Shown here in pieces: positions 33,306 to 59,517 of a DNA stretch of 64,000 nucleotides. The position numbers and the translations under genes are program-made. This DNA is from an uncultured Candidatus Saccharibacteria bacterium (lineage in GTDB: Bacteria; Patescibacteriota; Saccharimonadia; Saccharimonadales; Saccharimonadaceae): contig CAUPWH010000001.1 of NCBI GenBank assembly GCA_963515045.1, positions 127,118 to 191,117 on the forward strand. Direction: 5' to 3'. The notes beneath the pieces are model-generated. The model was given only the letters and a program-made list of their open reading frames with translations. It ran no database searches and was not told the DNA's origin. Each line of letters begins with the position of its first letter. Position 1 is the stretch's first letter.

Positions 33306-33318
33306 TACTCAATGATGT

Positions 33319-34992: not shown

Positions 34993-36044
34993 AATTTTAT
35001 ATTCTCCAAATGCTCATTAATAGACATGCCAATAATTTTTCCTAAATCAACCGGTACAGCGTTACCTATGTGCCTGCTAATTGTGCCGATTGAAACATTG
35101 TTGACGTCTTCAAAGAATTTATAATCTCTTGGGAAGGTCTGGAGTAGCGCACCCTCTCTGAGAGATATTGCTCTATCTTGCTCAGGATGACCATAACGAC
35201 CAGTACCGAATGAATAAAATTGCGTTGTAACAGTCGGCGAAGGTTTGTCCCACTCCATGCGACCATACACGCTGCCGAATGATTTGCCGGACGGCTTTTT
35301 GTAGCACTCTGGCAATAGTGATTCATCCCAGTCTCGCCACGTGCCGCCTGGCTTTGATTGTTTAATTCTCTTGAGATTTATCTCGGTTAATCCAGCACTT
35401 CTATGAAGAGGGTCGCTTTCGTCAATTTGTCCTTGAGATATCACAGGCAATCCCGATAATACGTCTCTGACGGTAAGTTTTTTCTCTATGGAGGTTTCTG
35501 GAATTAGTTGAATATCACCGTGTTTTGATGCCAATAAAACAAGTCGACGACGCTTTTGCGGTAGTCCGTATTTGCTACAGTCAACTATTTTGTAGCTTGT
35601 GTGATAACCTAATTCATCTAGTTTACCCAGAAAATCTTCGAATATGTCGTACTTATGAAGTTCTGGAACATTTTCCATAGATACAATGTCTGGTTTTATA
35701 TCTTCAATATACTGAGCAAACGACCTTAATAAATTCCAGCGGACGTCCGTCTTGGTGTCTATACTTTTACGGTATTTGTTGGCGTGACGCGAAAATCTTT
35801 GACAGGGTGCACAGCCGACTAGAACCTTAATATCGGCTTCTCCAAACATATTATCTACGTCTGAGCTTGGTAACTTTGATACATCCGCTTCAATAAATTT
35901 TGTATGATTGTTTTCTTCGTAGGCGTATCGGCATGTTGCATCATTATCTATGCCAGCAACGACGTCTAAGCCAGCTTTTTTCAGGCCGCAAGTCAACCCA
36001 CCTACGCCGCAAAACAGGTCTACGACGGCAACGTTATTATTCAT
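34989..36044 (-). CDS. dcm: DNA (cytosine-5)-methyltransferase
   Basis: All hallmark motifs are present: I DLFCGVGG, IV GCAPCQRFS, VI ENV, VIII QKRRR, IX REGALLQTFP, X GNAVPV. Confidence 0.9.
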   Translation of the reverse strand: MNNNVAVVDLFCGVGGLTCGLKKAGLDVVAGIDNDATCRYAYEENNHTKFIEADVSKLPSSDVDNMFGEADIKVLVGCAPCQRFSRHANKYRKSIDTKTDVRWNLLRSFAQYIEDIKPDIVSMENVPELHKYDIFEDFLGKLDELGYHTSYKIVDCSKYGLPQKRRRLVLLASKHGDIQLIPETSIEKKLTVRDVLSGLPVISQGQIDESDPLHRSAGLTEINLKRIKQSKPGGTWRDWDESLLPECYKKPSGKSFGSVYGRMEWDKPSPTVTTQFYSFGTGRYGHPEQDRAISLREGALLQTFPRDYKFFEDVNNVSIGTISRHIGNAVPVDLGKIIGMSINEHLENIKL

Positions 36045-44485: not shown

Positions 44486-46309
44486 ATGGATCTATATTCT
44501 TACACCGATACACCGAAATATCAGCCTCAAGACATTGAGGACGCATCAGAATTTTATAATTTGATTGAACGCAGCAGCCTAACACATCAGCTGTCAGAAA
44601 CGCGGCCGTACGTTTACTGGACGATGGAGATTTACGACAAGGCCAATGGCATTAAGGGCGGCGGCGGTCTCGGTGTTTTGGCGGCGGATACCCGGCGCGT
44701 GGCTGAAAAATTGGAAGTACCGTTCGTGGTAGTGACGCCGTTTTATCGCAGCGAGTCGCACCAAAAAATTGATGATTTGTCGCAGAATGAATACTCGGAA
44801 AAGGTTTCGCCGCAAGATTACGGTTTTGAATACATTGACGAAGTTACTGTCAGTTCGGCAGGCTTCCCCGACTCAAGTTTGAGTATTTTCAGAAAAACGC
44901 TCGGTTCGACGCAATTTATCACAATGTCAGAACCAAATTTCGGACAGTTATACGAAGGCGACGGCTCTGGCGATCATCGCCTGTATCAAGAAGTAGCGCT
45001 AGGCTTCGGCGGCTACAAAGCGCTGAAACTGGTCGGCATTAAGCCAGCTGTCATCCAGCTGAACGAGACGGCAACTATTTTCGCAGCGCTAGCGCGGCTG
45101 GACGAACTGTGCGCAAACGGCATGAATTTATATGAAGCCATTGTCTATGTTCGCAAACATACGCTGTACACTAACCATACATTACTGCAAGCTGCCGAGC
45201 CGGAGTTTAATCGTTCGCAATTTGAAAAACTGGTTTTACCAAACCTAAAAAGCAACGCTGTACGCTGCTGGCTAATGGAGCAATTCCGCAATGACCGCCT
45301 GCGGCCGAATTTACTAGCTATTGAGCTGACCGAGGCAAAAAATGGCGTCAGTAAACTACACGCTCGCGTAGCTGATTTTCGCGATCGCAACAATGATAAA
45401 GTAAAATTCCAAGCGATCACCAATGGCATCGACATGGAAACATGGGTGCTGCCAGAAATTATGAACACTTATTACAGCCAAAACATCATCGATAAGTTTG
45501 GCTTGCCGACAGAAGAGTTCAAAGAACAAATTGATAAAATTGACGCGCCAGCCATTCGCCAACTAAAAAGGCTTGGACGCCAGGAACTGAACAGGATTCT
45601 AGCGGCGCGCAAAGATCAGTATAATGAACCAGTGCAAATTCCTGAAGATGCGGTGCTGTTTGATTTCAAGCGGCGATTCGCCAACTATAAACGCCCGTAT
45701 ATGGCGTTTGAGCAGCCGGAAACTCTGCGCCAGATTTTAATCAACCATAACGCGCACTATATTTTAGCCGGCAAAGTCCACCAGGGCGACACGGCTATGT
45801 ACCAGCGGCTGCTTGACATCCTGAAGCTCGTTGACGGCGATCCAGTTTTACGCGAGCGCGTCCATTACATCCAGGATTATGATGAAGAGCTGGGCCGAGC
45901 TTTGGCAATCGGCTCAGATATTGCGATTAACGTACCGATGATCGGGCTGGAGGCTTGCGGCACGTCGTGGGAAAAAGATATCGCCAACCTTAAATTGCTT
46001 ATCTCTACCAGCGATGGCGGCGTCGCGGATGTCAAACCGATTGCCTGCCTGGAAGTGTCGGGCAATAATTACGATGCCGAAATATCATCGCTGTATGTCA
46101 ATATGCTAAAAGCTGCCGCTGCCGTTAAGAATGACCAATTGTTAGAAAAGACTGTTCGCCGCCAGTTAAAGGCATACCTACCGATCATTTCTGGCACGCG
46201 TATGATGAAAGATTATCTGAAGTTCCTGTTTCCGCAGCACCATTCGCAAAAATCACCAGCACCGCGAAACACGCCAGTGTCCGAACCAAAGAAAACCGCT
46301 ATTCAATAA
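44486..46309 (+). CDS. glgP: alpha-glucan (glycogen/maltodextrin) phosphorylase family, GT35
   Basis: GGGLGVLAAD, YTNHTLLQAAEPEF, NGVSKLHA, ITNGID..TW, and EACGTSWEK at the PLP-lysine region. Confidence 0.75.
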   Translation: MDLYSYTDTPKYQPQDIEDASEFYNLIERSSLTHQLSETRPYVYWTMEIYDKANGIKGGGGLGVLAADTRRVAEKLEVPFVVVTPFYRSESHQKIDDLSQNEYSEKVSPQDYGFEYIDEVTVSSAGFPDSSLSIFRKTLGSTQFITMSEPNFGQLYEGDGSGDHRLYQEVALGFGGYKALKLVGIKPAVIQLNETATIFAALARLDELCANGMNLYEAIVYVRKHTLYTNHTLLQAAEPEFNRSQFEKLVLPNLKSNAVRCWLMEQFRNDRLRPNLLAIELTEAKNGVSKLHARVADFRDRNNDKVKFQAITNGIDMETWVLPEIMNTYYSQNIIDKFGLPTEEFKEQIDKIDAPAIRQLKRLGRQELNRILAARKDQYNEPVQIPEDAVLFDFKRRFANYKRPYMAFEQPETLRQILINHNAHYILAGKVHQGDTAMYQRLLDILKLVDGDPVLRERVHYIQDYDEELGRALAIGSDIAINVPMIGLEACGTSWEKDIANLKLLISTSDGGVADVKPIACLEVSGNNYDAEISSLYVNMLKAAAAVKNDQLLEKTVRRQLKAYLPIISGTRMMKDYLKFLFPQHHSQKSPAPRNTPVSEPKKTAIQ

Positions 46310-47822
46310 TTACTTCAATTTCTGCGCCCAACGAATTGAGCCGCTGAGCCAGTTCCTCGTAGCCGCGATTTATTGAATATACATCGCGCAGGATTGACAC
46401 GCCTGGTGCTGCCAGCATCGCCAGTAGCACTACGACTGACGGCCTAAGCGCTGGCGGCGCCACAATATCAGCCGGCTTCCATTTCGTCGGACCAGTGATA
46501 TATACCCGGTGCGGATCAACCAGTTCAATTTGCGCATTTAATTTGCTTAGCTCCGTGAAATAAATTGCTCGATTTTCATAGCTCCAATCGTGTACTAGCG
46601 TCCGCCCTTTGGCAACTGTCGCGATTAGCCCCAAGAACGGCAGGTTGTCCATGTTAATCCCCGGAAACGGCAGCGCGTGCAGCTTATCTTTGGCTGCTTT
46701 CATCTGAGAATGCTTGAGGTGGATATCAACCAGGCGCGTCCTTTCGTTATTCGCAAAATATTCCTGGCTTAATTCAAACTGCAAGCCCATTTCCGCCAGC
46801 GTCGCCAGTTCAATTTCCAAAAATTCAATCGGCGCCCGGCGCACGGTAATTTCCGAACCAGTTACCGCCGCTGCGGCAATAAAACTCATGGCCTCGATCG
46901 GATCTTCGCTTGGATAGTAGTCAAGGTTTTTATTAATATGCTTACGGCCAGTAATTTTCAAAATCGTCGTACCGATTCCTTCGACTTTTACGCCCAATTT
47001 TTGCAGAAAGAAACAGACGTCCTGCACCATGTAATTTGGACTAGCATTGCGGATGATTGTCGTATCTGGCGACAACGCCGCCGCCATAATGACATTTTCC
47101 GTCACTGTATCGCCGCGCTCCGTCAAAAGAATCGTTCGATTGCCAGAAATCACCTTAGTTTGCGCATGATAATATTCCGATTCTGCCGCCACATCCATAC
47201 CAAAACAGCGCAAGCCGCTCAGATGCGGCTCAACCGTGCGCTTGCCGAGATTACAGCCGCCAGCAAACGGCAAACGAAAATCACGGTACTGGTGAAGCAG
47301 CGGGCCAAGAAACATGATCACCGTACGCGTCCGCTTGGCAGCCTCTATGTCCATATTTTCCAGCTTCAGGCGCGCTGGCGGCATAATTTCCAAATCATTG
47401 CCATCCAGCCAGCGAGTTTTCACGCCAATTGAGTTTAATACTTCAATAATCCGATTAACTTCCTCAATCCGCGCCACTTTCCTGAGCGTGGTTTTCCCTT
47501 TATTTAACAAACTGGCACACAGCAAACCGACTGCCGCGTTTTTACTCGTATTGACGCGTATCTCACCAGACAATTTTTTACCGCCATGCACCCGAAAATT
47601 CATTTTTCCAGAATGATTTACCATCATAATGTTATTATTTAATACTTCACTAATACGCGCTACCATCTCTATACTAATATTCTGACCACCGTTTTCAATC
47701 CGGTTAATAGCGCTCTGCGAGGTGCCAATCGCCTCGGCCAATTGTACTTGCGTCATGCCCTGTTTTTGGCGGTTTTCAGCGATTAAATTACCAATCTTCT
47801 TCAAATACTTATCTTTATTCAT
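46299..47822 (-). CDS. murA: XRE-type HTH domain fused to UDP-N-acetylglucosamine 1-carboxyvinyltransferase
   Basis: The first ~70 aa are an HTH_3 domain (GMTQVQLAEAIGTSQSAINRIENGGQNISIEMV). The remainder aligns along its length with MurA (FRVHGGKKLSGEI, SKNAA, active-site loop FAGGCNLGKRTVEPHLSGL, INRGYEELAQRLNSLGAEIE). Confidence 0.85.
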   Translation of the reverse strand: MNKDKYLKKIGNLIAENRQKQGMTQVQLAEAIGTSQSAINRIENGGQNISIEMVARISEVLNNNIMMVNHSGKMNFRVHGGKKLSGEIRVNTSKNAAVGLLCASLLNKGKTTLRKVARIEEVNRIIEVLNSIGVKTRWLDGNDLEIMPPARLKLENMDIEAAKRTRTVIMFLGPLLHQYRDFRLPFAGGCNLGKRTVEPHLSGLRCFGMDVAAESEYYHAQTKVISGNRTILLTERGDTVTENVIMAAALSPDTTIIRNASPNYMVQDVCFFLQKLGVKVEGIGTTILKITGRKHINKNLDYYPSEDPIEAMSFIAAAAVTGSEITVRRAPIEFLEIELATLAEMGLQFELSQEYFANNERTRLVDIHLKHSQMKAAKDKLHALPFPGINMDNLPFLGLIATVAKGRTLVHDWSYENRAIYFTELSKLNAQIELVDPHRVYITGPTKWKPADIVAPPALRPSVVVLLAMLAAPGVSILRDVYSINRGYEELAQRLNSLGAEIEVIIE

Positions 47823-47887
47823 GCGGCGATTATATCACAGATGGTATATTAACGCAATGGTATAATAGAAGAAAAGGAGGAAATGCC

Positions 47888-49159
47888 ATGCAGGATACAC
47901 AGGTCGCCGACTTGATTGCGGCAGAAATAAAACGACAGCAGCTGGGGATCGAAATGATACCTAGTGAAAATTATGTCTCTTCAGACGTACTCAAAGCGCT
48001 GGGCAGCGTCTTTACCAACAAATACTCTGAGGGCTACCCTGGCCGACGCTATTACGGCGGACAAGAAAACACCGATCAAATTGAACAGCTGGCGATTGAC
48101 CGCGCTAAAAAACTATTCAAGGCTGATCACGCCAATGTTCAGCCGCACTCCGGCGCCCAGGCCAACGAGGCGGTGTATTATGCGTGGTGCGAGCCGGGCG
48201 ATACCATTCTGGCGATGGATTTGGCGCACGGCGGCCACTTAACACATGGCGCGCCAGTCACCCGCTCAGCCCGCGAATATAACTTCGTCCGCTACGGCAT
48301 CAAGGATGTCGAGACTGGCGAAATTGACTATGAAGAAATTCGCCACTTGGCGCTGAAACATCAGCCAAAAATCATCTTGGCGGGCTTCTCGGCCTATCCG
48401 CGCGAGCTAGATTACACCAAGTTTGCCGAGATTGGCAACGAAGTCGGCGCTATGTTGATGGCAGACATGAGTCACATCGCTGGGCTGATCGTCGGCGGCG
48501 TAGCCAAAAATCCGTTCGATCATGGCTTTCACGTTATCACCACTACCACGCACAAAACCTTGCGCGGCCCGCGCGGCGGCTTGATCTTGTCGAGAGGCAT
48601 AGTCAGCAACCCTTTGAAGCGGCCAGAAAAAACCTTGGAAAACTTACCAACGCTGATCGACCGGGCAGTCTTCCCCGGCACCCAGGGCGGCCCGCACATG
48701 CACACCATCGCTGCCAAGGCAGTAGCCTTTGGCGAGGCGCTACACCCGGAGTTCACGGAGTACGCCCAGCAAATCGTAAAGAATGCGGCTGTTCTGGCAG
48801 ATGAACTAAAACGCGGCGGTTTGAAGTTAGTGACAGGCGGCACCAGCAACCACTTGGTGCTGGCGGACGTCTACGGCAGCTTTAATATCGACGGCAAAAC
48901 CGCCCAAGAGCGGCTGGAGGCCAGCGGTATCACCGCCAATGCCAACGCCATCCCTAACGACACCCTACCGCCATTCCGCCCAAGCGGACTGCGTCTAGGC
49001 ACGCCAGCACTCACTACGCGCGGCATGATGGAAGCGGAAATTAAGCAAATTGCCAAGTGGATTATTACAGCGATAAATACAGAGAATACAGCAGAATACG
49101 CAAAAATTAAGCAGCAAACTACTAGTCTTGCGGCGTGTTTTCCGCTACCATATAAGTAA
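47888..49159 (+). CDS. glyA: serine hydroxymethyltransferase
   Basis: ENYVS, YSEGYPGRRYYGG, TTTTHKTLRGPRGG (PLP lysine). AAGGAGG Shine-Dalgarno. Confidence 0.95.
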   Translation: MQDTQVADLIAAEIKRQQLGIEMIPSENYVSSDVLKALGSVFTNKYSEGYPGRRYYGGQENTDQIEQLAIDRAKKLFKADHANVQPHSGAQANEAVYYAWCEPGDTILAMDLAHGGHLTHGAPVTRSAREYNFVRYGIKDVETGEIDYEEIRHLALKHQPKIILAGFSAYPRELDYTKFAEIGNEVGAMLMADMSHIAGLIVGGVAKNPFDHGFHVITTTTHKTLRGPRGGLILSRGIVSNPLKRPEKTLENLPTLIDRAVFPGTQGGPHMHTIAAKAVAFGEALHPEFTEYAQQIVKNAAVLADELKRGGLKLVTGGTSNHLVLADVYGSFNIDGKTAQERLEASGITANANAIPNDTLPPFRPSGLRLGTPALTTRGMMEAEIKQIAKWIITAINTENTAEYAKIKQQTTSLAACFPLPYK

Positions 49160-49173
49160 TACTAAATAAATTG

Positions 49174-49330
49174 GGGGGCAAATCAGAAATGGTTTCTTCA
49201 AAAAACAAAGTAAAAGGTTTTACGCTCGTTGAGCTTCTAATCGTCATCGTGGTCATCGCCATTTTGGCAGCCATATCAATTGTGGCGTACAATGGTATTC
49301 AGCAGCGTTCGCGCGACTCGGCAGCGGCAG
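49174..49330. repeat. left arm of a perfect 157-bp inverted repeat (5' UTR plus first 47 codons of pilin A)
   Basis: By my base-by-base comparison it is identical to the reverse complement of 49963-50119. Identity ends abruptly on both sides. Confidence 0.9.
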
Positions 49331-49617
49331 CAACTGCTGCGCAGCTATCGGCAAAAATTGAAGTATGGAATAGCCGAATCGGCAGATATCCTTCAACATC
49401 AGAGGTTGAGCACGGACTTGATAATGCGAAAGTTACCGAAGCAAAACTAAACCAAGATTTGAGAAATAAAATTACCGTCTCTGGAACATCCAGCATAACA
49501 AATGACATTTTAGTTAACTATAAAACATGCGGCACTTCTCCTAACTTTACCGGCGCAGAAATCGCTTACAAAAAGGGTAGCAGCATTGAAACACTCAAAC
49601 GAGGTACCGGCTGTTAG
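49189..49617 (+). CDS. type IV major pilin (copy A)
   Basis: MVSSKNKVKG/FTLVELLIVIVVIAILAAISIVAY prepilin signal with E+5. C-terminal Cys pair (TCG...GTGC). Confidence 0.85.
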   Translation: MVSSKNKVKGFTLVELLIVIVVIAILAAISIVAYNGIQQRSRDSAAAATAAQLSAKIEVWNSRIGRYPSTSEVEHGLDNAKVTEAKLNQDLRNKITVSGTSSITNDILVNYKTCGTSPNFTGAEIAYKKGSSIETLKRGTGC

Positions 49618-49638
49618 CCAATAGACGATACACAAATT

Positions 49639-49662
49639 AAAACCCCGGTTTTCCGGGGTTTT
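49639..49662. terminator. bidirectional rho-independent terminator between the convergent pilin genes
   Basis: AAAA-CCCCGG-TTTT-CCGGGG-TTTT. The palindrome is flanked by an A tract and a T tract. Confidence 0.8.
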
Positions 49663-49684
49663 ATAATACCGGTTTACTGATATG

Positions 49685-50104
49685 CTAACAACCAGTTCCA
49701 CGATCAATACGTTCAGTACCGCCTCCGTGAACGTACGTAATCCTAGCACCAGTACCACCGCCACATTGCTTGTAATGAACAGGGTGTTCGTTGTCTGGAG
49801 TAGCGGTACCTGTGATAATCCTACTCTGCAACTCAGCACCAATCGCCGCTTCGTTAACGTCAGAATCAACTAGATGATCAGTACCTACTTGACTATCAGT
49901 CGGGTATGAACCCTTTACACTATTCCATGCCTCAACTTTAGTTGATAACTGAGACGCAGAACCTGCCGCTGCCGAGTCGCGCGAACGCTGCTGAATACCA
50001 TTGTACGCCACAATTGATATGGCTGCCAAAATGGCGATGACCACGATGACGATTAGAAGCTCAACGAGCGTAAAACCTTTTACTTTGTTTTTTGAAGAAA
50101 CCAT
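49685..50104 (-). CDS. type IV major pilin (copy B)
   Basis: The first 47 aa are identical to copy A. The C-terminal globular part is divergent, with a Cys pair (QCGG...GTGC). Confidence 0.85.
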   Translation of the reverse strand: MVSSKNKVKGFTLVELLIVIVVIAILAAISIVAYNGIQQRSRDSAAAGSASQLSTKVEAWNSVKGSYPTDSQVGTDHLVDSDVNEAAIGAELQSRIITGTATPDNEHPVHYKQCGGGTGARITYVHGGGTERIDRGTGC

Positions 50105-50119
50105 TTCTGATTTGCCCCC
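49963..50119. repeat. right arm of the perfect 157-bp inverted repeat (pilin B 5' end)
   Basis: Reverse complement of 49174-49330. Confidence 0.9.
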
Positions 50120-50186
50120 TATTTTTAAGTTAAGTTGTTAACAAGCATTAGTGTATCAGAAGCGAGTAATAAGCGCAAGCATTTTA

Positions 50187-50819
50187 TTAAAAATTGAGAG
50201 ATTTTACGTATAGCCAGCCAGTATAGCTGATGTCGTCGCCGGCAACCGTCTTAGAAGCAGTTAACTTTACTTCCATAGTATCGGAATTAGTAGTTACGCT
50301 TAGTTTGACTTCTTTACCAGCAGAAATCAAAGTATCATCAATGCCTCTTTGCCAAACGTTCGAAGACGAACTACAGCCGCTGTCCATACTAGCCTTACGC
50401 TTTAAAGTATTACCTCCAACGACAGAATATTCCATCTTATATACCAGTGCTTCCGCCACAGAAATACCAGTTCCCGCTACCGAGCAGTCGCTTTTTTTAA
50501 TCAGCTTCCGGCTGGCGCTTAATGGGTTGGCAGACGTCGCCAGATTATGCATTGATATTTTATTAGACGCCATACCGTCAAAGTCAGTGCTTAACTTTAC
50601 ATCTTGCTCAATCTGATCAAGCGCCGCCAGCACCTCATTCTGCAGCTGTGTACGGGCGCTAGCGCGCATAGAGGTTCCGGTTAAGTTTACTATTGCTACC
50701 ACCATGGCGCTAATAATTAATATTATAAGCGGCATGACAGTCAACAGTTCTATCAGCGTAAATCCGGCGCTTCTTTTACGACTCTGGTCTCGGCGCTTAG
50801 CCTCCAAGATACGTTGCAT
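50187..50819 (-). CDS. prepilin-type N-terminal domain protein (minor pilin)
   Basis: SAGFTLIELLTVMPLIILIISAMVVAI. Start set at MQRIL (50819); earlier in-frame starts are possible. Confidence 0.7.
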   Translation of the reverse strand: MQRILEAKRRDQSRKRSAGFTLIELLTVMPLIILIISAMVVAIVNLTGTSMRASARTQLQNEVLAALDQIEQDVKLSTDFDGMASNKISMHNLATSANPLSASRKLIKKSDCSVAGTGISVAEALVYKMEYSVVGGNTLKRKASMDSGCSSSSNVWQRGIDDTLISAGKEVKLSVTTNSDTMEVKLTASKTVAGDDISYTGWLYVKSLNF

Positions 50820-51168
50820 GCGACACCTCCTCGCCATCGGAACCGTATTTAACAGTAACGACAACTCTTATTAATGATGAATCCGTATACGGTTTACACA
50901 TAGAGACAGTAGCGGACGCTGGCTTCGGTAAAGAGTTCGACCGAAGAGTTGCTGGCGATACAGCCGGCGACGAGCAAGTATTAGCAACGGCGGCGTAATT
51001 TTGTTTGCGTAAAATCTCATAGCCAAGATTGCTAGCCTCGCTCATCTCCCTAGTGTCAGCCGACTGATTTATGACCACGCTGTATAGCTGGTAGCCGCTC
51101 ATTAAAAACAGCGCCGCCACGAAAAGGGTTATTAATATTTCTACTGTCGTAAACCCACCCTGTTTCAT
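50797..51168 (-). CDS. prepilin-type N-terminal domain protein (minor pilin)
   Basis: MKQGGFTTVEILITLFVAALFLMSGY. Confidence 0.75.
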   Translation of the reverse strand: MKQGGFTTVEILITLFVAALFLMSGYQLYSVVINQSADTREMSEASNLGYEILRKQNYAAVANTCSSPAVSPATLRSNSLPKPASATVSMCKPYTDSSLIRVVVTVKYGSDGEEVSHATYLGG

Positions 51169-51764
51169 TATTTATGCCTGCTTTCTATGACTTGCCATTT
51201 ATCCGAATCTTTGGTTTCTAAATGATACATGATTGAGTATTGGCGGCATTCAACGCCGCTCTCCTGGCATTTCGTACCGCTGCCAGAGTGAGCAAAGTAT
51301 ACATATGCGCCGCTTGGATATGCCGGCAAGTTATTGGCAGCGTAGTTATTTTTATACGAATTTATATCAGCAATACTGCTAATACTGCGGCCGCCGGAAA
51401 ATATACCCTGCTTGGCTGGAATTAGCGCTTCGTTGCCGGACGGGCCTTTTTTCGCATCGTCCTGTAAATTGGCTAATATTTTATCAAACTGGGCGCTGGT
51501 CAAATTAGACGATCCAGCTGCGCCGGAAAAATAAGCCGGATAGCTGCCGACTGGCTTGATAACATTACCGCCGCCGTCTTTGATTTCCTGCGAATAAATA
51601 CTTTCCAAGTACATCTGAATCGCCGCTATGTCAGCTTCGCGCTCCTTATCGCGGGCGCTCGCCTGATAGCTGCGAAAGCTAACAACGCCGATGGTAAATA
51701 AGATTGCTATGATAGCAATAACGATAGTTAGTTCAATGATTGTAAATCCACGCCTCATCCTCAT
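51168..51764 (-). CDS. prepilin-type N-terminal domain protein (minor pilin)
   Basis: MRMRRGFTIIELTIVIAIIAILFTIGVVSF. Confidence 0.75.
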   Translation of the reverse strand: MRMRRGFTIIELTIVIAIIAILFTIGVVSFRSYQASARDKEREADIAAIQMYLESIYSQEIKDGGGNVIKPVGSYPAYFSGAAGSSNLTSAQFDKILANLQDDAKKGPSGNEALIPAKQGIFSGGRSISSIADINSYKNNYAANNLPAYPSGAYVYFAHSGSGTKCQESGVECRQYSIMYHLETKDSDKWQVIESRHK

Positions 51765-51802
51765 GTATTAAGCATAACCGTAAAGACAAAAAACTACAAG
51801 CC

Positions 51803-52825
51803 TTATTCTAGCTCAAGCGGCTCTTGCTGGATTTGAATGTGAAATTTATCGTATACTTTCTGAACAATTTTCTCTCTGGCCATAGCCAAATCAGGATAGC
51901 CAGCCGCGCCATTATTAACTAAAACCAGCGCATTTTTTTCGTAAACTCGAATATTATGGAATGTTTTTCCTTTTAAGCCAGCCTTTTCAATAAGCCAGCC
52001 TGTAGGAATTTTATATGTATTGTCCGGCATAATGTAGTTCGGAATATCCGGATATTTTTTCTTTAATTCGTCCAGCTGCCACTGCTCTATGATAGCATTC
52101 TTAAAGAAAGAACCGGAATTTGGCTCTTGGGTGGGATCTGGCAATTTCTCGGCGCGAATATTAAGAACAGCCACTCGAATGACTGGCAAATTAACAATTC
52201 TAATGTCATTTTCAGTAAGATACTTTTGGATGGCAGCGTAATACGGCGGCTTAGGCTGAGTACGGAACAGCCGCAATGTAATGCTTAAAATACAATACCG
52301 CCCTTTTTGGCTGCTGCGAAAAATACTATTTCTGTACGAGAAATGGCAATCTTTGGCGCTAATAGTAACGATTTTCCCTTCTTTTGAATCAAATGCCTCC
52401 AGGCTAACCAGCGTATCAGCGATCTCTTGTCCGTAAGCACCGATGTTTTGCACCGGCGCAGCACCAGCTGTTCCAGGAATGCCCGACATCGCTTCAACGC
52501 CCTGTAAATCCATGCCAACTATCTTTTCCACCATTTCATCCCAATTTTCGCCGGCACCAATTTTTATGACAACGTTCTCGCCATCATCCGATATAATGTC
52601 AAAACCTTTGATGCGGTTCAATAAAACAACGCCGTTGAATGTCTCATCATGTGTGATCACGTTGCTGCCGCCGCCAAGGACGAAGACTTTCAAGCCTTTA
52701 GTACTAGCTTCCTTATAAATATTTTTAACATCATCAGCAGTGCTGGCTGCCGCCATAAAACGCGCTTTGCCGCCCAGCTGCATGGTTGTGTATTTTTTCA
52801 AAGATATATCAGTTCTCATTTCCAT
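51803..52825 (-). CDS. murB: UDP-N-acetylenolpyruvoylglucosamine reductase
   Basis: LKKYTTMQLGGKARF, FAD-binding VLGGGSNV, C-terminal GWLIEKAGLKG...VNNGAA. ATG 52825 lies 6 nt after a TATAAT; ATG 52819 is also possible. Confidence 0.85.
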   Translation of the reverse strand: MEMRTDISLKKYTTMQLGGKARFMAAASTADDVKNIYKEASTKGLKVFVLGGGSNVITHDETFNGVVLLNRIKGFDIISDDGENVVIKIGAGENWDEMVEKIVGMDLQGVEAMSGIPGTAGAAPVQNIGAYGQEIADTLVSLEAFDSKEGKIVTISAKDCHFSYRNSIFRSSQKGRYCILSITLRLFRTQPKPPYYAAIQKYLTENDIRIVNLPVIRVAVLNIRAEKLPDPTQEPNSGSFFKNAIIEQWQLDELKKKYPDIPNYIMPDNTYKIPTGWLIEKAGLKGKTFHNIRVYEKNALVLVNNGAAGYPDLAMAREKIVQKVYDKFHIQIQQEPLELE

Positions 52826-52882
52826 AAGCACATTATATCATTTTTCCCGGCTGGCGCTAGTGTGATATAATATACCCGTTAT

Positions 52883-52959
52883 GCACCCGTAGCTCAGCGG
52901 ATTAGAGTACTTGGCTTCGAACCAAGTGGTCGCAAGTTCGAATCTTGCCGGGTGTACCA
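52883..52959 (+). tRNA. tRNA-Arg (anticodon TCG), CCA encoded
   Basis: Cloverleaf with anticodon stem CTTGG/CCAAG, loop CTTCGAA, and a G1.U72 wobble. Confidence 0.85.
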
Positions 52960-53044
52960 ATTTTTGCGCTCTGGCAATCCAGCTGAACCACCCTCGGCGT
53001 TAAATTATACGTCCTTTGGCTGTATTGTAAGCAGCGCACCAAAT

Positions 53045-53121
53045 GCCCCGTTAGCTCAACTGGATAGAGCGTTGGTTTCCGGTACCAAAGGTTGCAGGTT
53101 CGATTCCTGTGCGGGGTACCA
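53045..53121 (+). tRNA. tRNA-Arg (anticodon CCG), CCA encoded
   Basis: Cloverleaf with anticodon stem TTGGT/ACCAA, loop TTCCGGT, and a G1.U72 wobble. Confidence 0.85.
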
Positions 53122-53134
53122 AAATGAATTTATT

Positions 53135-53485
53135 ATGTGTGATTTTTCTAAAACTCCTTACCGTAACGACGAAGCTGCCGGCTGGATTCTTAGCCCAGTG
53201 CACAGGCGTCTTGATTGCGTAGCTATTCATCAGACGCCGTACATTGTTCCAATTCATAGAGATTGGGGACTTGATCTTTTTAGCCTCAGCGTTGAGCTTA
53301 TTATCGTTACGCTGCTACTGCTTGTTGCTTGGCGGACACGACAAAAAGCTTCACGCGATACGAATCGCAAATCGCGAGTTGTAATTTCAATACTTTTCAA
53401 AACAGCCGCAATACTATTTGTTGCCACCGTAATTGCCGTAACGTGCATGCGCTTGTTACATGGCGCGCGAGCAAACAGTCTTTGA
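53135..53485 (+). CDS. possible small membrane protein
   Basis: This is the part of ORF 52952-53485 downstream of tRNA-Arg, starting at MCDFSK. It has two hydrophobic segments and no family signal. Confidence 0.3.
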   Translation: MCDFSKTPYRNDEAAGWILSPVHRRLDCVAIHQTPYIVPIHRDWGLDLFSLSVELIIVTLLLLVAWRTRQKASRDTNRKSRVVISILFKTAAILFVATVIAVTCMRLLHGARANSL

Positions 53486-53580
53486 AAAATATGCAACGAA
53501 TTATTTTGATTCTAAAAACCATTCAGCAATTCCGAATCATCAATTGATATGATTCTTAAATCTCTGTTACAATATCCTCA

Positions 53581-54270
53581 GTGATGACAAAATTGAGAAA
53601 AAGACAGAGTCCTGATTTATGTGTAGAGCGCTGCACGCCCAGGTGGCTTGCTAGTTTATTTGGCCGCCAAGCTGTGCGCTGGAGCATAAAAAATGAGGAT
53701 ATTAAAGAACAGCTAGCAGATTTCAAAAAGGCTGAGCTATGGGCGGACACGCTCCTTGACGAGCACTGGAACGATAAGTTTCCTGTTGATCCAAACGTCA
53801 TCGCAGTAAACATGGGAATGGAAGTTTGGCTTGCACCTACTTCGGGAGAATTTGCTGGTGTCATTTTAAAAACCGATAAACAGGAAATGCCGTCAATCTT
53901 TGTAGACAAGGATGCTACCACTTCTCGAAAACGCTTAACGATCGCTCATATGGTTGGCCACTACGTTGAACATCTCGGAGACCCGGAATCCCCAGACCAG
54001 CAAATACCTGGCTATTTTGGATTTCATGATGAATCAATGGTTAGCGATGAGACAATTCTTGCAGACCGTAGGCCTACCGACTCGGGGGCGCCTAACCAAT
54101 CTCAGCGAGAACTCTTTGCAGACCACTTCGCCCGCTCTCTGCTAATGCCCGAGGGCGAGTTTCAGGAGGTTATCGATTTGGGATTGAAGTTCGACGACAT
54201 TGCGACATACTTTGGTGTTTCTGCTGCAACTATGCGAAATCGCCTGAATGATCTCGGAATAGACCTTTAA
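53581..54270 (+). CDS. ImmA/IrrE (DUF955) family metallopeptidase-like protein with an atypical HMVGH site
   Basis: LTIAHMVGHYVEH sits where the family has HExxH. Downstream ELFADHFARSLLMPEGEF matches the conserved E..AN.FA..LLMP segment. Confidence 0.6.
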   Translation: MMTKLRKRQSPDLCVERCTPRWLASLFGRQAVRWSIKNEDIKEQLADFKKAELWADTLLDEHWNDKFPVDPNVIAVNMGMEVWLAPTSGEFAGVILKTDKQEMPSIFVDKDATTSRKRLTIAHMVGHYVEHLGDPESPDQQIPGYFGFHDESMVSDETILADRRPTDSGAPNQSQRELFADHFARSLLMPEGEFQEVIDLGLKFDDIATYFGVSAATMRNRLNDLGIDL

Positions 54271-54395
54271 CGAGTAGTTAGGGATTACTTCCATCCTGGA
54301 ATTATCACAGAACGCCAGCAGACCCATATTCGTTATTTGACTTTCCATATTGCCTGTGCTTAAATCATAAGCATTAGTACTCTGAGGAGAGGGAT

Positions 54396-56630
54396 ATGGA
54401 ACATAAACAAACAAATCATGGAAAAATAAAAATTGTTGCTGGAATATTTACCGCCGCACTGGTAGCGGCTTTGCTATATTGGCTATTTACTAGCCTACTA
54501 AATGTAAACCAACACAGTCAAAGGAAGAAAGAGCCTGATCACGTCGCCGCCTCTCAAATAGATGATGAAAACACCAGTCCGCAGCGACCAAACACAAACT
54601 CAAAATCGAGTTCGGACGATAATAAAACTAATCAATCTCAACATAATGACGACATAGAAAATTCATCCAACGGCTCCGCCGAGACAACTAGCAATAATAC
54701 TGCTGTCATGTACCGTAACAGCGCCGCTTCCCGCCACCGCCAGGCAACCTTGGCAAGCAAAAAGCCGTCAACTCACAATAGTATTTTTCAAAGACCTAAG
54801 CACAGACCAATCACTAAGCCCGGCGGCAACAAACCGACTACACCGCCCAATCCGCCAAAACCACCCAAGCCAACGCCCGAGCCAGCGCAGGCAGCCGTAA
54901 AAATCGTCGGTGCCGCAGAGGTCGGCTCAACCCTAATCGCACAAATCGACGATCCCGACGGATTGAAAGACGGCGGTATACGATATTATCAATGGTTTGC
55001 TGACGGCGCGGCTATTCCTGGCGCCAGCTATTTCTCGTACAAGTTGACACCAGCCGAAGCCGGCAAAAAAATCACCGTCAAAACAACTCATGCTGACGGC
55101 AAAAACGTAATGAAAGATTTAATTAGCTCAGCTACGGCAGCTGTCGGCAACGCCGCATCAAATAATAACCATGGTAGCGTCACCATCGACGGAATAAACC
55201 GAGTCGGACAAATATTCACTGCTCACATTACCGATGCCGACGGCGTACCAGAGAGCGGCATTACTTACCGATGGTACGAATTTTACGGCAAATTCTTGGG
55301 AACTGGCAAAACTCTCGCGCAAACCAGAGATCACCTCGGTATGCAAGTCATCGTCCAAGCCAGTTACACCGACAAAAAAGGACATAGAGAGAGCGTCACC
55401 AGCGAATTTAGCGGGTCGGTCGTCGATAATTCAGGCGGCGGCACTGGCGCGGGGATAATCAGTCCTGCTGCGACTGCGCCAAAAATTACCCTTCATGGAC
55501 CAACCAACGTCAAAGAAGGAGAGACCGCTGTTTACACGGCAACTTTAGACAAAGCAGCCAGTACCGATGTTAGCGCGGATATCAAGATCACGCACAATAC
55601 TAGCAATCCGAACAATCTCAACATCCGTTGGGACAGCCAGCGAGTGGTTATTAAAGCCGGAGAAACCAGCGCCAAATTCTACGTTGATACCAATGCCGGC
55701 ACTGACGGTAAAGGTAAAACTTACACCGTTTCTCTTAGTAACGCTGTCGCTGGCATGGTCAATAAAACAAATACCAGTTCCTATACCGCGGTCAATGCTC
55801 AATCGGTTTTTATGTTATCGTACGTCTATCCGCTCGCTGAAGCTGGCGGCAGCGAGTTCTCCGACTACTGGAAAGCTGTTCATGCAGCAGGCAGCAGCAA
55901 AATCCCGTATACACTCATCATGGCAGACGGCAGTCCTGACGCCAAGCTCGACCCAGGCTATGTGCGGCTGCTAAAAAAGAACGCCGAGCTTGGTTTCAAA
56001 ACTGTCGCTTACATCCGCACTATTCATCAAACTCGCCCGATTGCCGAAGTTAAAGCCGCAATGGCTAAGTTCATTGAACTTTACGGGGCAGATAAAATTC
56101 ACGGTTTTTACTTCGACGAAGTATCATCCAGAAATAACGGCGCAACGGCTTACATGGCAGAATTGTATAACTATACGAAAAATACTTACGGCAATAAATT
56201 GGTCGTCGCCAATCCTGGTACTCATATCACCGACGCAATTGCACCATACGCCGATATTTTCATGACTAACGAAGGCACTGCTGACGAATATATTAATAAC
56301 TATAAGACCGCTTACTCTGCCTTTGAAAAAGATCCGGCAAACTCCCATCGTATTTTCCATACGATTTATGCCGCAAAAGCTGGCGATTACCAAAAAATAA
56401 TCAATTTATCGCGCCAGCGTAATGCCGGCTGGGTATTTATCACCACCGATAGTACGATACCTGATGGCAGGCCGTACAATGATTTGGCAGCTAATTTCCC
56501 TGCCCTTGTCGACAATATCAATAACCTGGGTGGACGACCATTTGATCCGAACAGGAACACAACGCAGCCTTTGCTGGCTGGCGCGATAATCGCATCGGCA
56601 GACGTTAAAACTACAATTACAGCAAAGTAA
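54396..56630 (+). CDS. membrane-anchored multidomain surface protein: two Ig-like repeats, Calx-beta-like domain, C-terminal spherulation-specific family 4 (GH135-like) domain
   Basis: TM, a low-complexity Pro-rich linker, and two ~85-aa repeats (VGSTLIAQIDDPDG..YYQW / VGQIFTAHITDADG..YRWY). Then VKEGETAVYTATL...VIKAGETSAKFYV. C-terminus SYVYPL...W...AYIRT...IHGFYFDEV...VANPG. Confidence 0.5.
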   Translation: MEHKQTNHGKIKIVAGIFTAALVAALLYWLFTSLLNVNQHSQRKKEPDHVAASQIDDENTSPQRPNTNSKSSSDDNKTNQSQHNDDIENSSNGSAETTSNNTAVMYRNSAASRHRQATLASKKPSTHNSIFQRPKHRPITKPGGNKPTTPPNPPKPPKPTPEPAQAAVKIVGAAEVGSTLIAQIDDPDGLKDGGIRYYQWFADGAAIPGASYFSYKLTPAEAGKKITVKTTHADGKNVMKDLISSATAAVGNAASNNNHGSVTIDGINRVGQIFTAHITDADGVPESGITYRWYEFYGKFLGTGKTLAQTRDHLGMQVIVQASYTDKKGHRESVTSEFSGSVVDNSGGGTGAGIISPAATAPKITLHGPTNVKEGETAVYTATLDKAASTDVSADIKITHNTSNPNNLNIRWDSQRVVIKAGETSAKFYVDTNAGTDGKGKTYTVSLSNAVAGMVNKTNTSSYTAVNAQSVFMLSYVYPLAEAGGSEFSDYWKAVHAAGSSKIPYTLIMADGSPDAKLDPGYVRLLKKNAELGFKTVAYIRTIHQTRPIAEVKAAMAKFIELYGADKIHGFYFDEVSSRNNGATAYMAELYNYTKNTYGNKLVVANPGTHITDAIAPYADIFMTNEGTADEYINNYKTAYSAFEKDPANSHRIFHTIYAAKAGDYQKIINLSRQRNAGWVFITTDSTIPDGRPYNDLAANFPALVDNINNLGGRPFDPNRNTTQPLLAGAIIASADVKTTITAK

Positions 56631-56645
56631 ATTCACCAGCTAAAG

Positions 56646-59102
56646 TTAAGTGCCGAAATCTTGAACATCTGACGGAAGCGGTGCTGGCTGAGAAACTTCT
56701 GATGCATCAAGCACCTGGCTAATTTGCTGGGCAGTAATAGTTGCCGTCGAACCCGGCGCGATCAGGCCAGCTAGCATCTGCTTGGCGATGGTATTCTCAA
56801 CTGCTCGCTGGACAACGCGGCGCATCGGACGCGCGCCCAGACGCGGATCATAGCCAGCTTCAACCAATAATTTCTTACCTTCCTCCTCAACCGCAACCTG
56901 GATTTTTTGCGGCGCCAAAGTTTTATTAACGCCAGCCAAAATCAAATCGACAACCTGCAATAGCTCTTCCTTGCCCAGCGGACGGAATAAGACAATTTCA
57001 TCAAAACGGTTCAAAAACTCCGGCCGGAATAGATTAGCATTAATTAGCTCGTTGATAAATGTTTGTTCAAACTGTTCCAACTGGTAACCGCGTTCAATAT
57101 ATTCGCGAATTCTATCCGCTCCAGCGTTCGACGTAGCAATAACAATCGTGTCGCGAAAACTAATTTCCCGGTTATTTTCATCGCGCAGAATACCCTCGTC
57201 CAGTAGCTGCAGCAGCGTTGTTAAAACTTGCGGATGAGCCTTTTCAATCTCATCCAGCAGCACCACGGAAAACGGGCGCTTCTGAACTTGAGCGGTTAGG
57301 CTACCTGGATCATGCGCGCCATCAGCAATCAGCCGCGCTACGTCATCTGGGCGAACAAACTCGTTAAGATCCAACCGGATCATACTGCCCTCGCCGCCAA
57401 AATAAACATCCGCCAGCGCTTTGGATAGTTCAGTTTTACCAACGCCAGTCGGACCAAGAAACAGGAAAGCGCCAATCGGCCGATTTTGGTTTCTAACGCC
57501 AGTACGCGCCCGACGAATAGCATCGGAAACAACTGTCACTGCCCGCGACTGATTAATCATCCGCTGATGAATCAACGTTTCTAAATTAAGCAATTTCTCA
57601 CGCTCGTCGCCAGTATTCGCTGTGGATATTTTTATACCCAAAGTTTTTTCAATTGCATCGTCCACCGATTGTGCAGTCACCAGTCCATTCTGAGCGCAGC
57701 TAGCAGCTGACTCTAGAATCTTCAAAGCTTTGCCTGGCATCGCCAAATCTTGAACATAGCGATCACCGACCCGATAAGCCTCGGCCAAAGCTTGATACAT
57801 ATACGCCACCCGGTATTGCGCCTCAAAAAAGAAGAGTTGGTCGCGCATAATCTTCATCGTTCCCACCTCGTCAGTCGGACGAATAGCGATTGTATTCAGC
57901 GCGTGCGCCAACTGCGGTTTCATCTGGGAAATCTGCAAAAACCGCTGCTCGTCCATCGCCAAAATCATGCGCAGCCGTCCCGCCTCCAGGATCGGCAGCA
58001 AGACATTGCTTAAATCAACCGAGCCGACACCCTCCTCAAAGAACAACTGCGCATTATCCAAACATAAAATAACATTTTTCGACAAATAAGCCTCGTTAAT
58101 AATCATCGTCACCAAGTTCTCCAAATCACCGCGGCCGGACGCCGAACTCACCAGTGACGACGCATCCAGCATAAAAACTTGCTGATATAGCAGATGCCGC
58201 GGCACGCCTTTATAACCATCGATCAGCATTTCGGCAAAAGCTGCTACTACCGTAGTCTTACCTGCGCCGTCAGCGCCAACCAGCGTAACATTTTGCCGCC
58301 CGCCAGAGCTAAATGTTGCCAGCATCTGTTCCAGTGCACTATTATGCATATCAAGCTTAGTCGCCATTATACCGCCGCTCACCTGCGCGCTAATATTCTG
58401 CGCGAAACGGCTTAGTAGCGGTGTATAACCAAACGACCAATCCCGGGCAATACCGCCTGTCCGAAGCGGTTTAACCTTGCGCTGCTCGATTAGCTCTTTG
58501 CTTCGTTCGTACCAGCGAACGCCCTCCAGTACATCCTGAAAGTCAATTTTCATATTTGCCAGCAGTGCGTCGTGCTGCGGCAGCTGCTTGACAATTGCCG
58601 CCGCTAAGACTGCGCCGGTAATCTTTGGACTGGCGGTTTCCTGCCAAATTTCAATCGCTGTTTGCCAAATCGCCTCAATATCTGCCGGATTTTCCGACGC
58701 GATATTTTGCAGCAAATTTGGCGTCACGCCCAAACGTACCGCCAGAAAAAGCCCGGCACGCGTTCCAGCGACCGCTAAAGCCACGTCTTTCGGCGTTGGC
58801 TGAGGCGATAACTTTCCTAAAACATCCGCCGCCATAACGTCATCAATTGTTTGCGGATTTTTACTAATTTCAGCTGTTTTCAAATCTTTTTCCCACCAAA
58901 TTGCCAGCATAATAAGCGGGCCGCTCAAGCCGATTAACAGCCAGCCGGCTGCGCCATGCGTAAATAGCGACCAAACCCCTAGCAAAAGCAATCCGCAGCT
59001 TAAAACGCCGGTCAGCAAATGCCAAGCCTTGCCGAAACGAACGGAAAAACGCGCTTTTTGCGAACGTAAACTGTGATAATTGAGTCTTGGAGCAACATTC
59101 AT
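56646..59102 (-). CDS. membrane-anchored two-ring Clp/Hsp100-family AAA+ ATPase
   Basis: Two N-terminal TM helices. D1 has Walker A GADGAGKTTV with Walker B ILCLDNAQ (Asn in place of the catalytic Glu). D2 has GPTGVGKTELSKALA, VVLLDEIEKAHP, FRPEFLNRFD. No ClpB-type middle domain or IGF/L loop seen. The ATG at 59102 overlaps the upstream stop (ATGA). Confidence 0.75.
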   Translation of the reverse strand: MNVAPRLNYHSLRSQKARFSVRFGKAWHLLTGVLSCGLLLLGVWSLFTHGAAGWLLIGLSGPLIMLAIWWEKDLKTAEISKNPQTIDDVMAADVLGKLSPQPTPKDVALAVAGTRAGLFLAVRLGVTPNLLQNIASENPADIEAIWQTAIEIWQETASPKITGAVLAAAIVKQLPQHDALLANMKIDFQDVLEGVRWYERSKELIEQRKVKPLRTGGIARDWSFGYTPLLSRFAQNISAQVSGGIMATKLDMHNSALEQMLATFSSGGRQNVTLVGADGAGKTTVVAAFAEMLIDGYKGVPRHLLYQQVFMLDASSLVSSASGRGDLENLVTMIINEAYLSKNVILCLDNAQLFFEEGVGSVDLSNVLLPILEAGRLRMILAMDEQRFLQISQMKPQLAHALNTIAIRPTDEVGTMKIMRDQLFFFEAQYRVAYMYQALAEAYRVGDRYVQDLAMPGKALKILESAASCAQNGLVTAQSVDDAIEKTLGIKISTANTGDEREKLLNLETLIHQRMINQSRAVTVVSDAIRRARTGVRNQNRPIGAFLFLGPTGVGKTELSKALADVYFGGEGSMIRLDLNEFVRPDDVARLIADGAHDPGSLTAQVQKRPFSVVLLDEIEKAHPQVLTTLLQLLDEGILRDENNREISFRDTIVIATSNAGADRIREYIERGYQLEQFEQTFINELINANLFRPEFLNRFDEIVLFRPLGKEELLQVVDLILAGVNKTLAPQKIQVAVEEEGKKLLVEAGYDPRLGARPMRRVVQRAVENTIAKQMLAGLIAPGSTATITAQQISQVLDASEVSQPAPLPSDVQDFGT

Positions 59103-59473
59103 AGCGTTACCCCCAATCGCCATAAGATAAATCCGATAACTGGCAACACTGGCAAAATTAGCCACGCCAAAACACCTATTAGTTCAAAAATAACCACAAT
59201 AGCAATCGCTATAATACCGATAAAAATAACCAGCGTACGAACAACCGCGCCGATTATTCTGGAAATTAGCCTGTCGAAAAAGGCTCTTAATTTGACTGGC
59301 AGCGGACCGTCAACATAACTGGCGGATATTTGGCGAAACGGGTTAAATAATGTCCTTAGCAACAGCCCAACAGAGAAATGATCGGCCACTCTTAGCACTG
59401 TCACGAAGCTTCGCCTGGCGTAATCCCATAGGCCGCTGCCATACCACCATTGAAAAATCCCCACCAAAAACAT
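59099..59473 (-). CDS. small polytopic membrane protein, translationally coupled to the AAA+ ATPase
   Basis: Hydrophobic C-terminal half (VIFIGIIAIAIVVIFELIGVLAWLILPVLPVIGFILW). TACAAT lies 6 nt upstream of its ATG. Confidence 0.55.
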   Translation of the reverse strand: MFLVGIFQWWYGSGLWDYARRSFVTVLRVADHFSVGLLLRTLFNPFRQISASYVDGPLPVKLRAFFDRLISRIIGAVVRTLVIFIGIIAIAIVVIFELIGVLAWLILPVLPVIGFILWRLGVTL

Positions 59474-59517
59474 GTTTTTATTGTAGCATATTTGCTAATC
59501 GGGTTATAATAGCTAGT

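Follow-up and report, generated by a model that had tools for sequence, protein, structure and literature searches.

We analysed a 64,000-nucleotide stretch of DNA from an uncultured Candidatus Saccharibacteria bacterium (assembly GCA_963515045.1, contig CAUPWH010000001.1, positions 127,118 to 191,117 of the forward strand), and the whole of this stretch is referred to here as the window. It contains two convergent type IV pilin genes, pilin A and pilin B, located between glyA, which encodes serine hydroxymethyltransferase, and a set of minor-pilin genes bounded by murB. Pilin A follows glyA on the plus strand, and pilin B ends the minor-pilin operon on the minus strand. We call these two places the glyA slot and the minor-pilin slot. 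The 5' ends of the two genes form a perfect inverted repeat, and the domains encoded beyond it are different. Our analyses identify this pair as a new case of a known phenomenon, concerted evolution confined to part of a duplicated pilin.

Each gene is complete and has a start codon and a ribosome-binding site of its own, and the products match the Pfam N_methyl family (PF07963) with 35.9 bits each (cutoff 21.2). Both proteins begin MVSSKNKVKG/FTLVELLIVIVVIAILAAISIVAY, with FTLVELL following the glycine at the cleavage site. Each protein has a short basic leader ending in Gly, Phe at +1, Glu at +5 and a hydrophobic alpha-1 helix some 20 residues long, as expected of a type IV prepilin. The N-terminal regions match solved type IV (T4a) major pilins such as 8tum (E 1.3e-6) and 2hi2. 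A C-terminal cysteine pair typical of T4a major pilins is also present (residues 114 and 142 in A, 114 and 139 in B) and is a candidate for a D-region disulphide. Between strains, omega was 0-0.25 for A and 0.15-0.31 for B, which points to purifying selection and indicates that both genes are functional.

Base-by-base comparison of the two 5' ends gave a single uninterrupted run of 157 identical positions out of 157. This agrees with a first reading of the window made from the sequence only (hereafter the sequence-only reading), which had described the identity and its abrupt ends on both sides. Each arm of the repeat holds 15 nucleotides (nt) of the 5' untranslated region (UTR), including the G-run of the Shine-Dalgarno sequence, and codons 1-47 of the pilin, and the arms are separated by an interior of 632 nt. 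At the inner edge one side reads caactgctgcgc and the other gttctgcgtctc; at the outer edges there is no homology (ctaaataaattg against aacttaaaaata). Weaker homology widens the inverted repeat to 206 nt at 93% identity (49168-49373 and 49920-50125). The arm occurs only twice in the window, against a chance expectation of 0 (100 shuffles). The same two-pilin structure was found in dozens of independent assemblies and in the complete genome CP128407, so it is not an assembly artefact of the window.

Table 1 Features of the pilin locus and their coordinates in the window
Feature	Start	End	Strand	Description
glyA	47888	49159	+	Serine hydroxymethyltransferase (PF00464); upstream context of pilin A
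Promoter-like element, glyA slot	49128	49156	+	TTGCGG-N17-TATAAG in the last glyA codons, 32 nt 5' of the pilin A ATG
Left arm	49174	49330	+	15 nt of 5' UTR, 10-residue prepilin leader and alpha-1 helix (codons 1-47) of pilin A
Pilin A	49189	49617	+	Complete type IV prepilin, 142 amino acids; starts 29 nt past the glyA stop
Partly homologous extension	49331	49373	+	Mirror at 49920-49962; older or occasional conversion zone
Hairpin between the two stop codons	49639	49662		Symmetric, GC-rich, perfect 10-bp stem, AAAACCCCGG-TTTT-CCGGGGTTTT
Pilin B	49685	50104	-	Complete type IV prepilin, 139 amino acids; positional orthologue of the single pilin of sister clades
Right arm	49963	50119	-	Identical 157 nt, start of pilin B; overwritten by resident A-arm sequence relative to near-identical B alleles elsewhere
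Promoter-like element, minor-pilin slot	50150	50178	-	TTGCGC-N17-TACACT, 45 nt 5' of the pilin B ATG
Prepilin-like (minor pilin) open reading frame	50187	50864	-	5' of pilin B; annotated as 210 amino acids in other assemblies
Prepilin-like (minor pilin) open reading frame	50797	51168	-	5' of pilin B
Prepilin-like (minor pilin) open reading frame	51168	51764	-	5' of pilin B
murB	51803	52831	-	Conserved boundary of the pilin locus

To place the pair in its lineage, glyA-anchored loci were compared across 80 species-representative genomes, all of them Saccharibacteria. Genomes with at least 92% amino acid identity in GlyA have the convergent pilin pair, and those of sister clades, with 74-92% identity, have a single pilin convergent with glyA and sometimes extra tandem copies. 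The nearest named relative, 'oral taxon 488 strain 106.1.1', has a complete genome (CP128407) and a GlyA that is 95% identical. The C-terminal tail of glyA is homologous in single-pilin and two-pilin genomes, and the extra gene of the latter lies between the glyA stop and the terminator. This position identifies pilin A as a derived inverted duplicate, copied from the ribosome-binding site to the stop codon. We had considered whether the duplication itself made the glyA C-terminal tail, and rejected this because of the homology to the tail in single-pilin genomes.

The age of the duplication follows from the two coding sequences. In the window, the arms of A and B show 0 synonymous differences over 36.3 synonymous sites. 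From codon 48 onward the proportion of synonymous differences (pS) is 0.80, a saturated value, and nonsynonymous divergence (dN) is 0.50. Since synonymous sites are saturated just past the arm and the pair is common to the whole clade, the duplication is old, which excludes a recent one.

Several lines of evidence revealed that the 5' ends have been homogenised since that duplication. In a set of 10 haplotypes whose pilin A or pilin B protein is the same as that of the window, four single-nucleotide polymorphisms of the left arm (49269, 49272, 49278 and 49287) are mirrored in the same strains at the corresponding right-arm positions (50024, 50021, 50015 and 50006). In 13 other species-level genomes the repeat sequence is species-specific and perfect over 68-157 nt, and across 32 distinct haplotypes the perfect length ranges from 7 to 157 nt. 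The outer base of the repeat is constant in every two-pilin genome (GGGGGCAAATCAGAAATG). Over the first 120 nt, the mean distance of A to the B of its own genome is 3.06, compared with 14.9 to the B of other genomes and 13.9-15.5 between orthologues. None of 10000 permutations matched this within-genome closeness.

Mosaic alleles point to the direction of copying. Compared with two other genomes (L035 and L026), the window is 99.3-99.6% identical in the B interior, 98.5-100% upstream of B and 98.8-99.6% in the adjacent minor pilin. The right arm, lying inside this near-identical block, is only 94.9-95.5% identical, with 7-8 differences over 157 positions. In L035, whose own arms are perfectly identical, the 7 right-arm differences are the same as the left-arm differences. 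This island of difference inside a shared block shows that, in one lineage or more, the resident A arm has overwritten the B arm. The opposite direction of conversion was observed too. The 600-nt contig L144 (ERZ1744179 NODE_4403) carries a chimeric allele in the glyA slot (protein P0014), with B-type codons 48-62 and an A-type remainder, together with a 12-nt in-frame deletion. Its A copy equals the B sequence throughout the partly homologous extension, and it shows that tracts can reach about 200 nt. At the junction A and B share only 9 nt, too few for an artefact of k-mers or the de Bruijn graph. The locus has in this way two properties of concerted evolution, paralogues that are closer within a genome than orthologues and mosaic alleles (the right arm and L144). 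The ongoing gene conversion or recombination between the 5' ends that the sequence-only reading had proposed is demonstrated directly by the mirrored polymorphisms, the permutation test, the contrast in synonymous sites, the overwritten right arm and the L144 allele.

The sequence-only reading had further headlined the repeat as a possible invertible cassette for pilin variation and had named swapped arrangements in relatives as something to look for. Our results do not bear this out. In essentially all of about 100 distinct junctions, drawn from about 14 species-level genomes, many metagenomes and one closed genome, an A-type domain is on the glyA side and a B-type domain on the minor-pilin side. 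The glyA slot carried a domain of the A_g1 family in 17 distinct sequences, of A_g2 in 19, of another kind in 3, and a flipped B_g1 domain in 2. The minor-pilin slot carried B_g1 in 15 distinct sequences, other domains in 47, a flipped A_g2 domain in 1 and A_g1 in 0. In a neighbour-joining tree of the globular domains, the glyA-slot sequences form the A_g1 and A_g2 clades and a third, long-branched family (L123 and L136), and the minor-pilin-slot alleles intermix with those of single-pilin genomes, which indicates slot fidelity. We rejected an old fixed inversion as the origin of the L123 and L136 glyA-slot pilins, as they form this third family and their partner genes are not of the A type. 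An exact-protein look-up of pilins A and B for swapped neighbours returned the normal orientation at all 20 places shown.

A scan of metagenome contigs for a 29-nt arm motif gave 40 stretches with two flipped joins (L134 and L124), both below 2x coverage. A homologue search together with five further look-ups added four normal joins, one flipped join (L149) and the true chimeric allele of L144. The glyA flank is joined to a B-type domain in L134 (1700 nt, coverage 1.58) and in L149 (769 nt, MEGAHIT k=141), which starts with an Illumina adapter and contains base errors. The minor-pilin flank is joined to an A-type domain in L124 (1260 nt, coverage 1.99). The glyA flank of L134 reaches only 82-88% identity with any reference, and the pilin part is 94.8-99.6% identical to the B alleles of other strains (99.6% to L001), the pattern expected from a cross-strain mis-join. 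In L134 and L149 the arm (about 152 nt) is no shorter than the read or k-mer, so these two contigs hold no linkage information across the join. All longer or better-covered contigs, and the closed genome, have the same orientation.

A Pfam search of every open reading frame of at least 150 amino acids in the window, made partly via related contigs, recognised no domain of a recombinase, integrase or transposase; a handful of frames had no Pfam match. The recombinases seen in relatives are strain-specific insertions, an rve-family insertion sequence in L002 and a large serine recombinase in L006. Crossover sites of fixed length and fixed position were not found among the 32 haplotypes, in which only the outer edge, the duplication boundary, is constant. 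These results fit a stable orientation with at most rare homologous, RecA-mediated inversion.

We weighed four other explanations. One is a flip-flop that needs no dedicated recombinase, in which RecA-mediated crossover between the arms would rarely and reversibly invert the 632-nt interior and swap the pilin surface domains between the dedicated pilA2 slot, with its presumed strong and conserved promoter, and the glyA-coupled slot, changing the dominant pilin. The three flipped contigs, which come from two different pilin groups, would then be real molecules. A perfect inverted homology of 157 nt is well above the RecA minimum, crossover comes from the same intermediates as the conversion demonstrated here, and the two slots have different upstream elements. 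Inversion would also leave both proteins unchanged, and nothing obvious forbids it. Yet the flipped joins occur only on contigs of at most 1.7 kb, two with less than 2x coverage and the third beginning with adapter, all perhaps joined across a repeat longer than any read, and the longer or better-covered contigs and the closed genome agree on one orientation. The flipped state is fixed in no lineage although the pair persists across about 14 species-level genomes, and many assemblers passed straight through the repeat, which argues against a large flipped minority. We regard this explanation as unlikely. Site-specific inversion, as in the Moraxella Piv, Hin or shufflon systems, shares the general geometry, two opposed pilin C-terminal cassettes with a common N-terminal coding segment, but we give it almost no credence: the Pfam search found no recombinase domain in the 64 kb and the recombinases of relatives are strain-specific, the repeat boundary varies over 7-157 nt and is not a short fixed site, both genes are complete, and the orientation is the same in essentially all junctions.

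Cassettes could instead be exchanged between strains by natural transformation, with incoming DNA recombining in the 5' arm and the flank and replacing only the variable domain. The B-slot alleles are independent of the glyA phylogeny and mixed with alleles of single-pilin genomes, and the B interior is 99.3-99.6% identical where glyA and the A genes differ by 5-13%. One haplotype (L116) has a foreign leader class in one slot, and in a relative (L023) identity falls sharply at the locus, from 95.7% to about 70%. Saccharibacteria are reported to be naturally competent (PMC10187176). Such exchange alone would not explain the same polymorphisms in both arms of one genome. Moreover, near-identity resumes beyond the right arm, upstream of B and in the minor pilin, as an internal overwrite would leave it and a block boundary would not. 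As a full explanation we find it very improbable, and it probably co-occurs with conversion rather than replacing it. The 157-nt identity on its own would suit a very recent, undiverged duplication or an assembly collapse, the former being the fallback of the sequence-only reading. Next to no weight is left for either, given the synonymous saturation just past the arm, a pair spread through a clade of species-level genomes that each have their own arm sequence, and the same structure in many independent assemblies and a closed genome. The 5' ends look young through repeated re-homogenisation.

We favour, with a probability of roughly 0.8, old inverted paralogues of the pilA2 type whose 5' third has been repeatedly homogenised by intragenomic gene conversion, in a stable orientation and with no programmed switch. 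Pilin B, last in the minor-pilin operon, would still be in the ancestral slot. In the ancestor of one oral clade, the relatives of oral taxon 488, a copy reaching from Shine-Dalgarno sequence to stop codon would have been placed in inverted orientation directly behind glyA, giving pilin A. The UTR, leader peptide and alpha-1 helix would then have been homogenised in both directions by non-reciprocal (non-crossover) homologous recombination, presumably dependent on RecA. The window does not contain recA; in Nanosynbacter TM7x a recAX operon is reported in type IV pilus (T4P) locus two (PMC11623550). On the outside the tracts would stop at the G-run, where the duplicated DNA ends. Their inner limit would be variable, with mismatches rising sharply at the globular domain, and probably also set by selection that keeps the domains different. 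The 157-nt repeat of the window is then the longest current perfect tract in the sampled population. The outcome would be two functional pilins with an identical module for processing and assembly and different exposed domains (dN 0.50 from codon 48 to the end), and the shared leader and alpha-1 helix should suit the same prepilin peptidase and assembly machinery. Import of B-domain alleles between strains would occur as well, probably with the conserved arm as one homology anchor.

Some observations weigh against this account of conversion in a stable orientation. Homogenisation is not universal, as L116 has different leader classes in its two slots. The mosaic of the window relative to L035 and L026 could be explained in part by import of the B interior between strains, with a crossover inside the arm. 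The three flipped joins (L134, L149 and L124) fit mis-joins but also resemble a real inversion, and assemblies give only the majority arrangement, so a flipped minority subpopulation would be invisible in them. Several contigs end in or at the arm, and several protein-search matches lie on contigs of only about 600-1060 nt that may be repeat-bounded fragments (five of these were fetched), indicating that assemblers often failed to resolve the repeat.

RecA-dependent gene conversion makes the inverted paralogues tufA and tufB of Salmonella and Escherichia coli evolve in concert, and inversions between the two occur rarely. The pilin pair is similar in that inverted paralogues on one chromosome keep identical synonymous sites through non-reciprocal recombination and seem stable in orientation in nature. 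The tuf genes differ from it in being far apart and homogenised over their full length, whereas the pilins lie 632 nt apart, with only the 5' third homogenised and the 3' two-thirds kept different. Gene conversion of the RecA type between pilin paralogues is also known from the pilE/pilS system of Neisseria, where silent cassettes that lack a promoter donate variable segments to a single expression locus and create diversity. In pilins A and B, by contrast, it is the conserved segment that is copied between two complete genes, with homogenisation as the result. In Moraxella bovis and M. lacunata, the Piv invertase inverts the tfpQ/tfpI pilin segments. As in the window, two alternative opposed C-terminal segments share an N-terminal coding sequence, and inversion would exchange them. 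In the Moraxella system a single promoter and a single N-terminal segment lie outside the invertible DNA, the sites are short and fixed, and piv is adjacent, whereas pilins A and B are two complete genes with variable arms limited by homology, no recognised invertase and no robust evidence of flipping. The resemblance to Piv pilin inversion and to shufflons is one of geometry only.

Human Y-chromosome palindromes (PMC3723533) and a flip/flop region of yeast chromosome XIV (PMC9731477) are reported to undergo arm-to-arm conversion with rare inversions. There, as here, recurrent conversion keeps inverted repeats nearly identical, which makes occasional inversion possible. Those repeats are eukaryotic and of kilobase scale, with documented inversion polymorphism; the pilin repeat belongs to a bacterium, measures 157 nt and takes up only part of a gene, and its inversion is undocumented. 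By analogy, the mechanism at the pilin locus would most resemble the concerted evolution of inverted paralogues such as tufA and tufB, and arm-to-arm conversion in palindromes.

We compared the locus with the T4P loci of Nanosynbacter to assign pilin B. In TM7x, T4P locus three comprises pilA2, pilX2, pilW2, pilV2 and pilZ2, and PilA2 is the major subunit of the thin host-binding T4P-2 pilus (PMC11623550, PMC13194787). PilX2 of TM7x carries RCC1 (PMC11623550). In Nanosynbacter sp. TM7-008 (L087), glyA is followed by a convergent pilin, a 585-amino-acid RCC1 beta-propeller protein, three prepilins and murB, an order that equals TM7x T4P locus three and puts pilin B in the pilA2 slot. From this synteny and the published description of the locus (PMC11623550), pilin B is predicted to be the pilA2 orthologue by place, as the last gene of the minor-pilin operon between murB and glyA, convergent with glyA. 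In size pilin A (142 amino acids) and pilin B (139) are close to TM7x PilA2 (141; PMC13194787), also a small (about 140 amino acids) type IVa-like prepilin at the end of a minor-pilin operon.

The two lineages differ in gene content. TM7x and other Nanosynbacter have one pilA2 and an RCC1 PilX2, whereas the clade of the window has two inverted pilA2-type genes and no RCC1 protein at the locus. The RCC1 beta-propeller PilX2 was not found at the locus in the window (50187-51764), and it is present in L087 (7874-9631) and L023 (9237-11000). A neighbouring minor pilin of 225 amino acids was considered as a truncated PilX2 and rejected, as it has no similarity to the RCC1 protein. PilX2 of TM7x is reported to be important for binding to the host and to TLR2. 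In the clade of the window, the loss of this tip adhesin at the pilA2 locus coincides with the duplication of the major pilin.

In several more distant Saccharibacteria (L058, L060, L089, L096 and L103) the pilin of the pilA2 slot is duplicated in tandem on the same strand, and in L096 the upstream regions of both tandem pilins are identical. Duplication of this pilin is hence recurrent and has occurred in both orientations. The two TM7x pilus papers do not mention a duplication (PMC11623550, PMC13194787), and we found no account of pilin duplication or phase variation in Saccharibacteria in the literature searched.

Further elements of the locus concern its expression. The hairpin between the stop codons is probably a bidirectional intrinsic terminator, with the plus-strand role deduced from its symmetry only. 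Upstream of the minor-pilin slot, the pattern TTG(C/T)G(C/T)-N17-TACAAT/TACACT recurs at a comparable distance in nearly all close relatives, and elements like it are found in several more distant single-pilin genomes. We infer from the consensus match only that this element serves as a promoter. The glyA-slot element is present in all two-pilin genomes, and its hexamers do not occur in the homologous glyA tail of single-pilin genomes; a promoter role for it is speculative. According to these matches, pilins A and B would have separate promoters. The best sigma-70-like match of the region, TTGGCA-18-TACAAT (10/12), lies within the arm and inside both pilin coding sequences (49264-49293 on the plus strand, 50029-50000 on the minus strand), and is probably a chance product of AT-rich codons of the hydrophobic helix. 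The Shine-Dalgarno G-run of the glyA-slot pilin (49173-49178 in the window) has 6-8 G across strains (L001, L011, L118, L123, L131, L135 and L138), and that of the minor-pilin slot has 5 G in nearly all close relatives listed. The glyA-slot run grows away from the ATG, so the spacing stays constant. An Rfam scan of the window returned tRNAs only.

The surroundings of the locus are variable. Compared with positions 46000-60000 of the window, L023 (ERZ26139479 NODE_1820) is 95.7% identical over the ClpB-Spherulin4 region (about 54.3-60 kb) but only 66-72% over the stretch that leads from murB through the pilins to glyA. Its identity falls between the Spherulin4 gene and murB, except in two short patches of 88-97% near a tRNA-Arg pair (52883-53121). 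Judged from these identities, the pilin locus looks like a hot spot of recombination or replacement. Strains also differ in the interval that separates the Spherulin4-like gene from murB and the tRNA-Arg pair (52832-54396), with an M78 peptidase gene in the window (53581-54270), the rve-family insertion sequence in L002 (10965-12026) and other small open reading frames elsewhere (L001, 9966-10607). In L006 (1-1111), the large serine recombinase is inserted upstream of a phosphorylase gene.

Other genes of the window were noted in passing. Two tandem paralogues of about 500 amino acids on the minus strand (296-1789 and 1982-3493) have DUF285 and Listeria-Bacteroides repeat (Flg_new) domains and are probable surface proteins. 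A cluster at 32817-36044, comprising a PLDc_2 nuclease-like gene (32817-33305), a gene for an HATPase_c_3 protein (33319-34992) and a DNA methylase gene (34989-36044), is possibly a restriction-modification or defence module. MurA (EPSP_synthase fold; 46299-47822, minus strand) has an N-terminal fusion to a Cro/C1-type helix-turn-helix domain that is kept in all related contigs.

The T4P-2 pili formed by PilA2 bind Saccharibacteria to their bacterial hosts and, via TLR2, to human cells (PMC11623550, PMC13194787). On a practical level, the repeat breaks or mis-joins short-read assemblies at the pilin locus. If the flip-flop were true, clonal populations of an obligate episymbiont would have built-in heterogeneity in their host-binding pilus; the remaining chance that rare inversion has functional meaning is small. 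The pair also gives a clean example, from nature, of what partial concerted evolution looks like in a very small genome. One widespread oral clade has duplicated its major pilin, has kept the assembly module identical by conversion and the exposed domains different, and lacks PilX2 at the locus. The duplication, together with the absence of PilX2 from the locus, suggests that these episymbionts may reach breadth in host range or antigens by another route.

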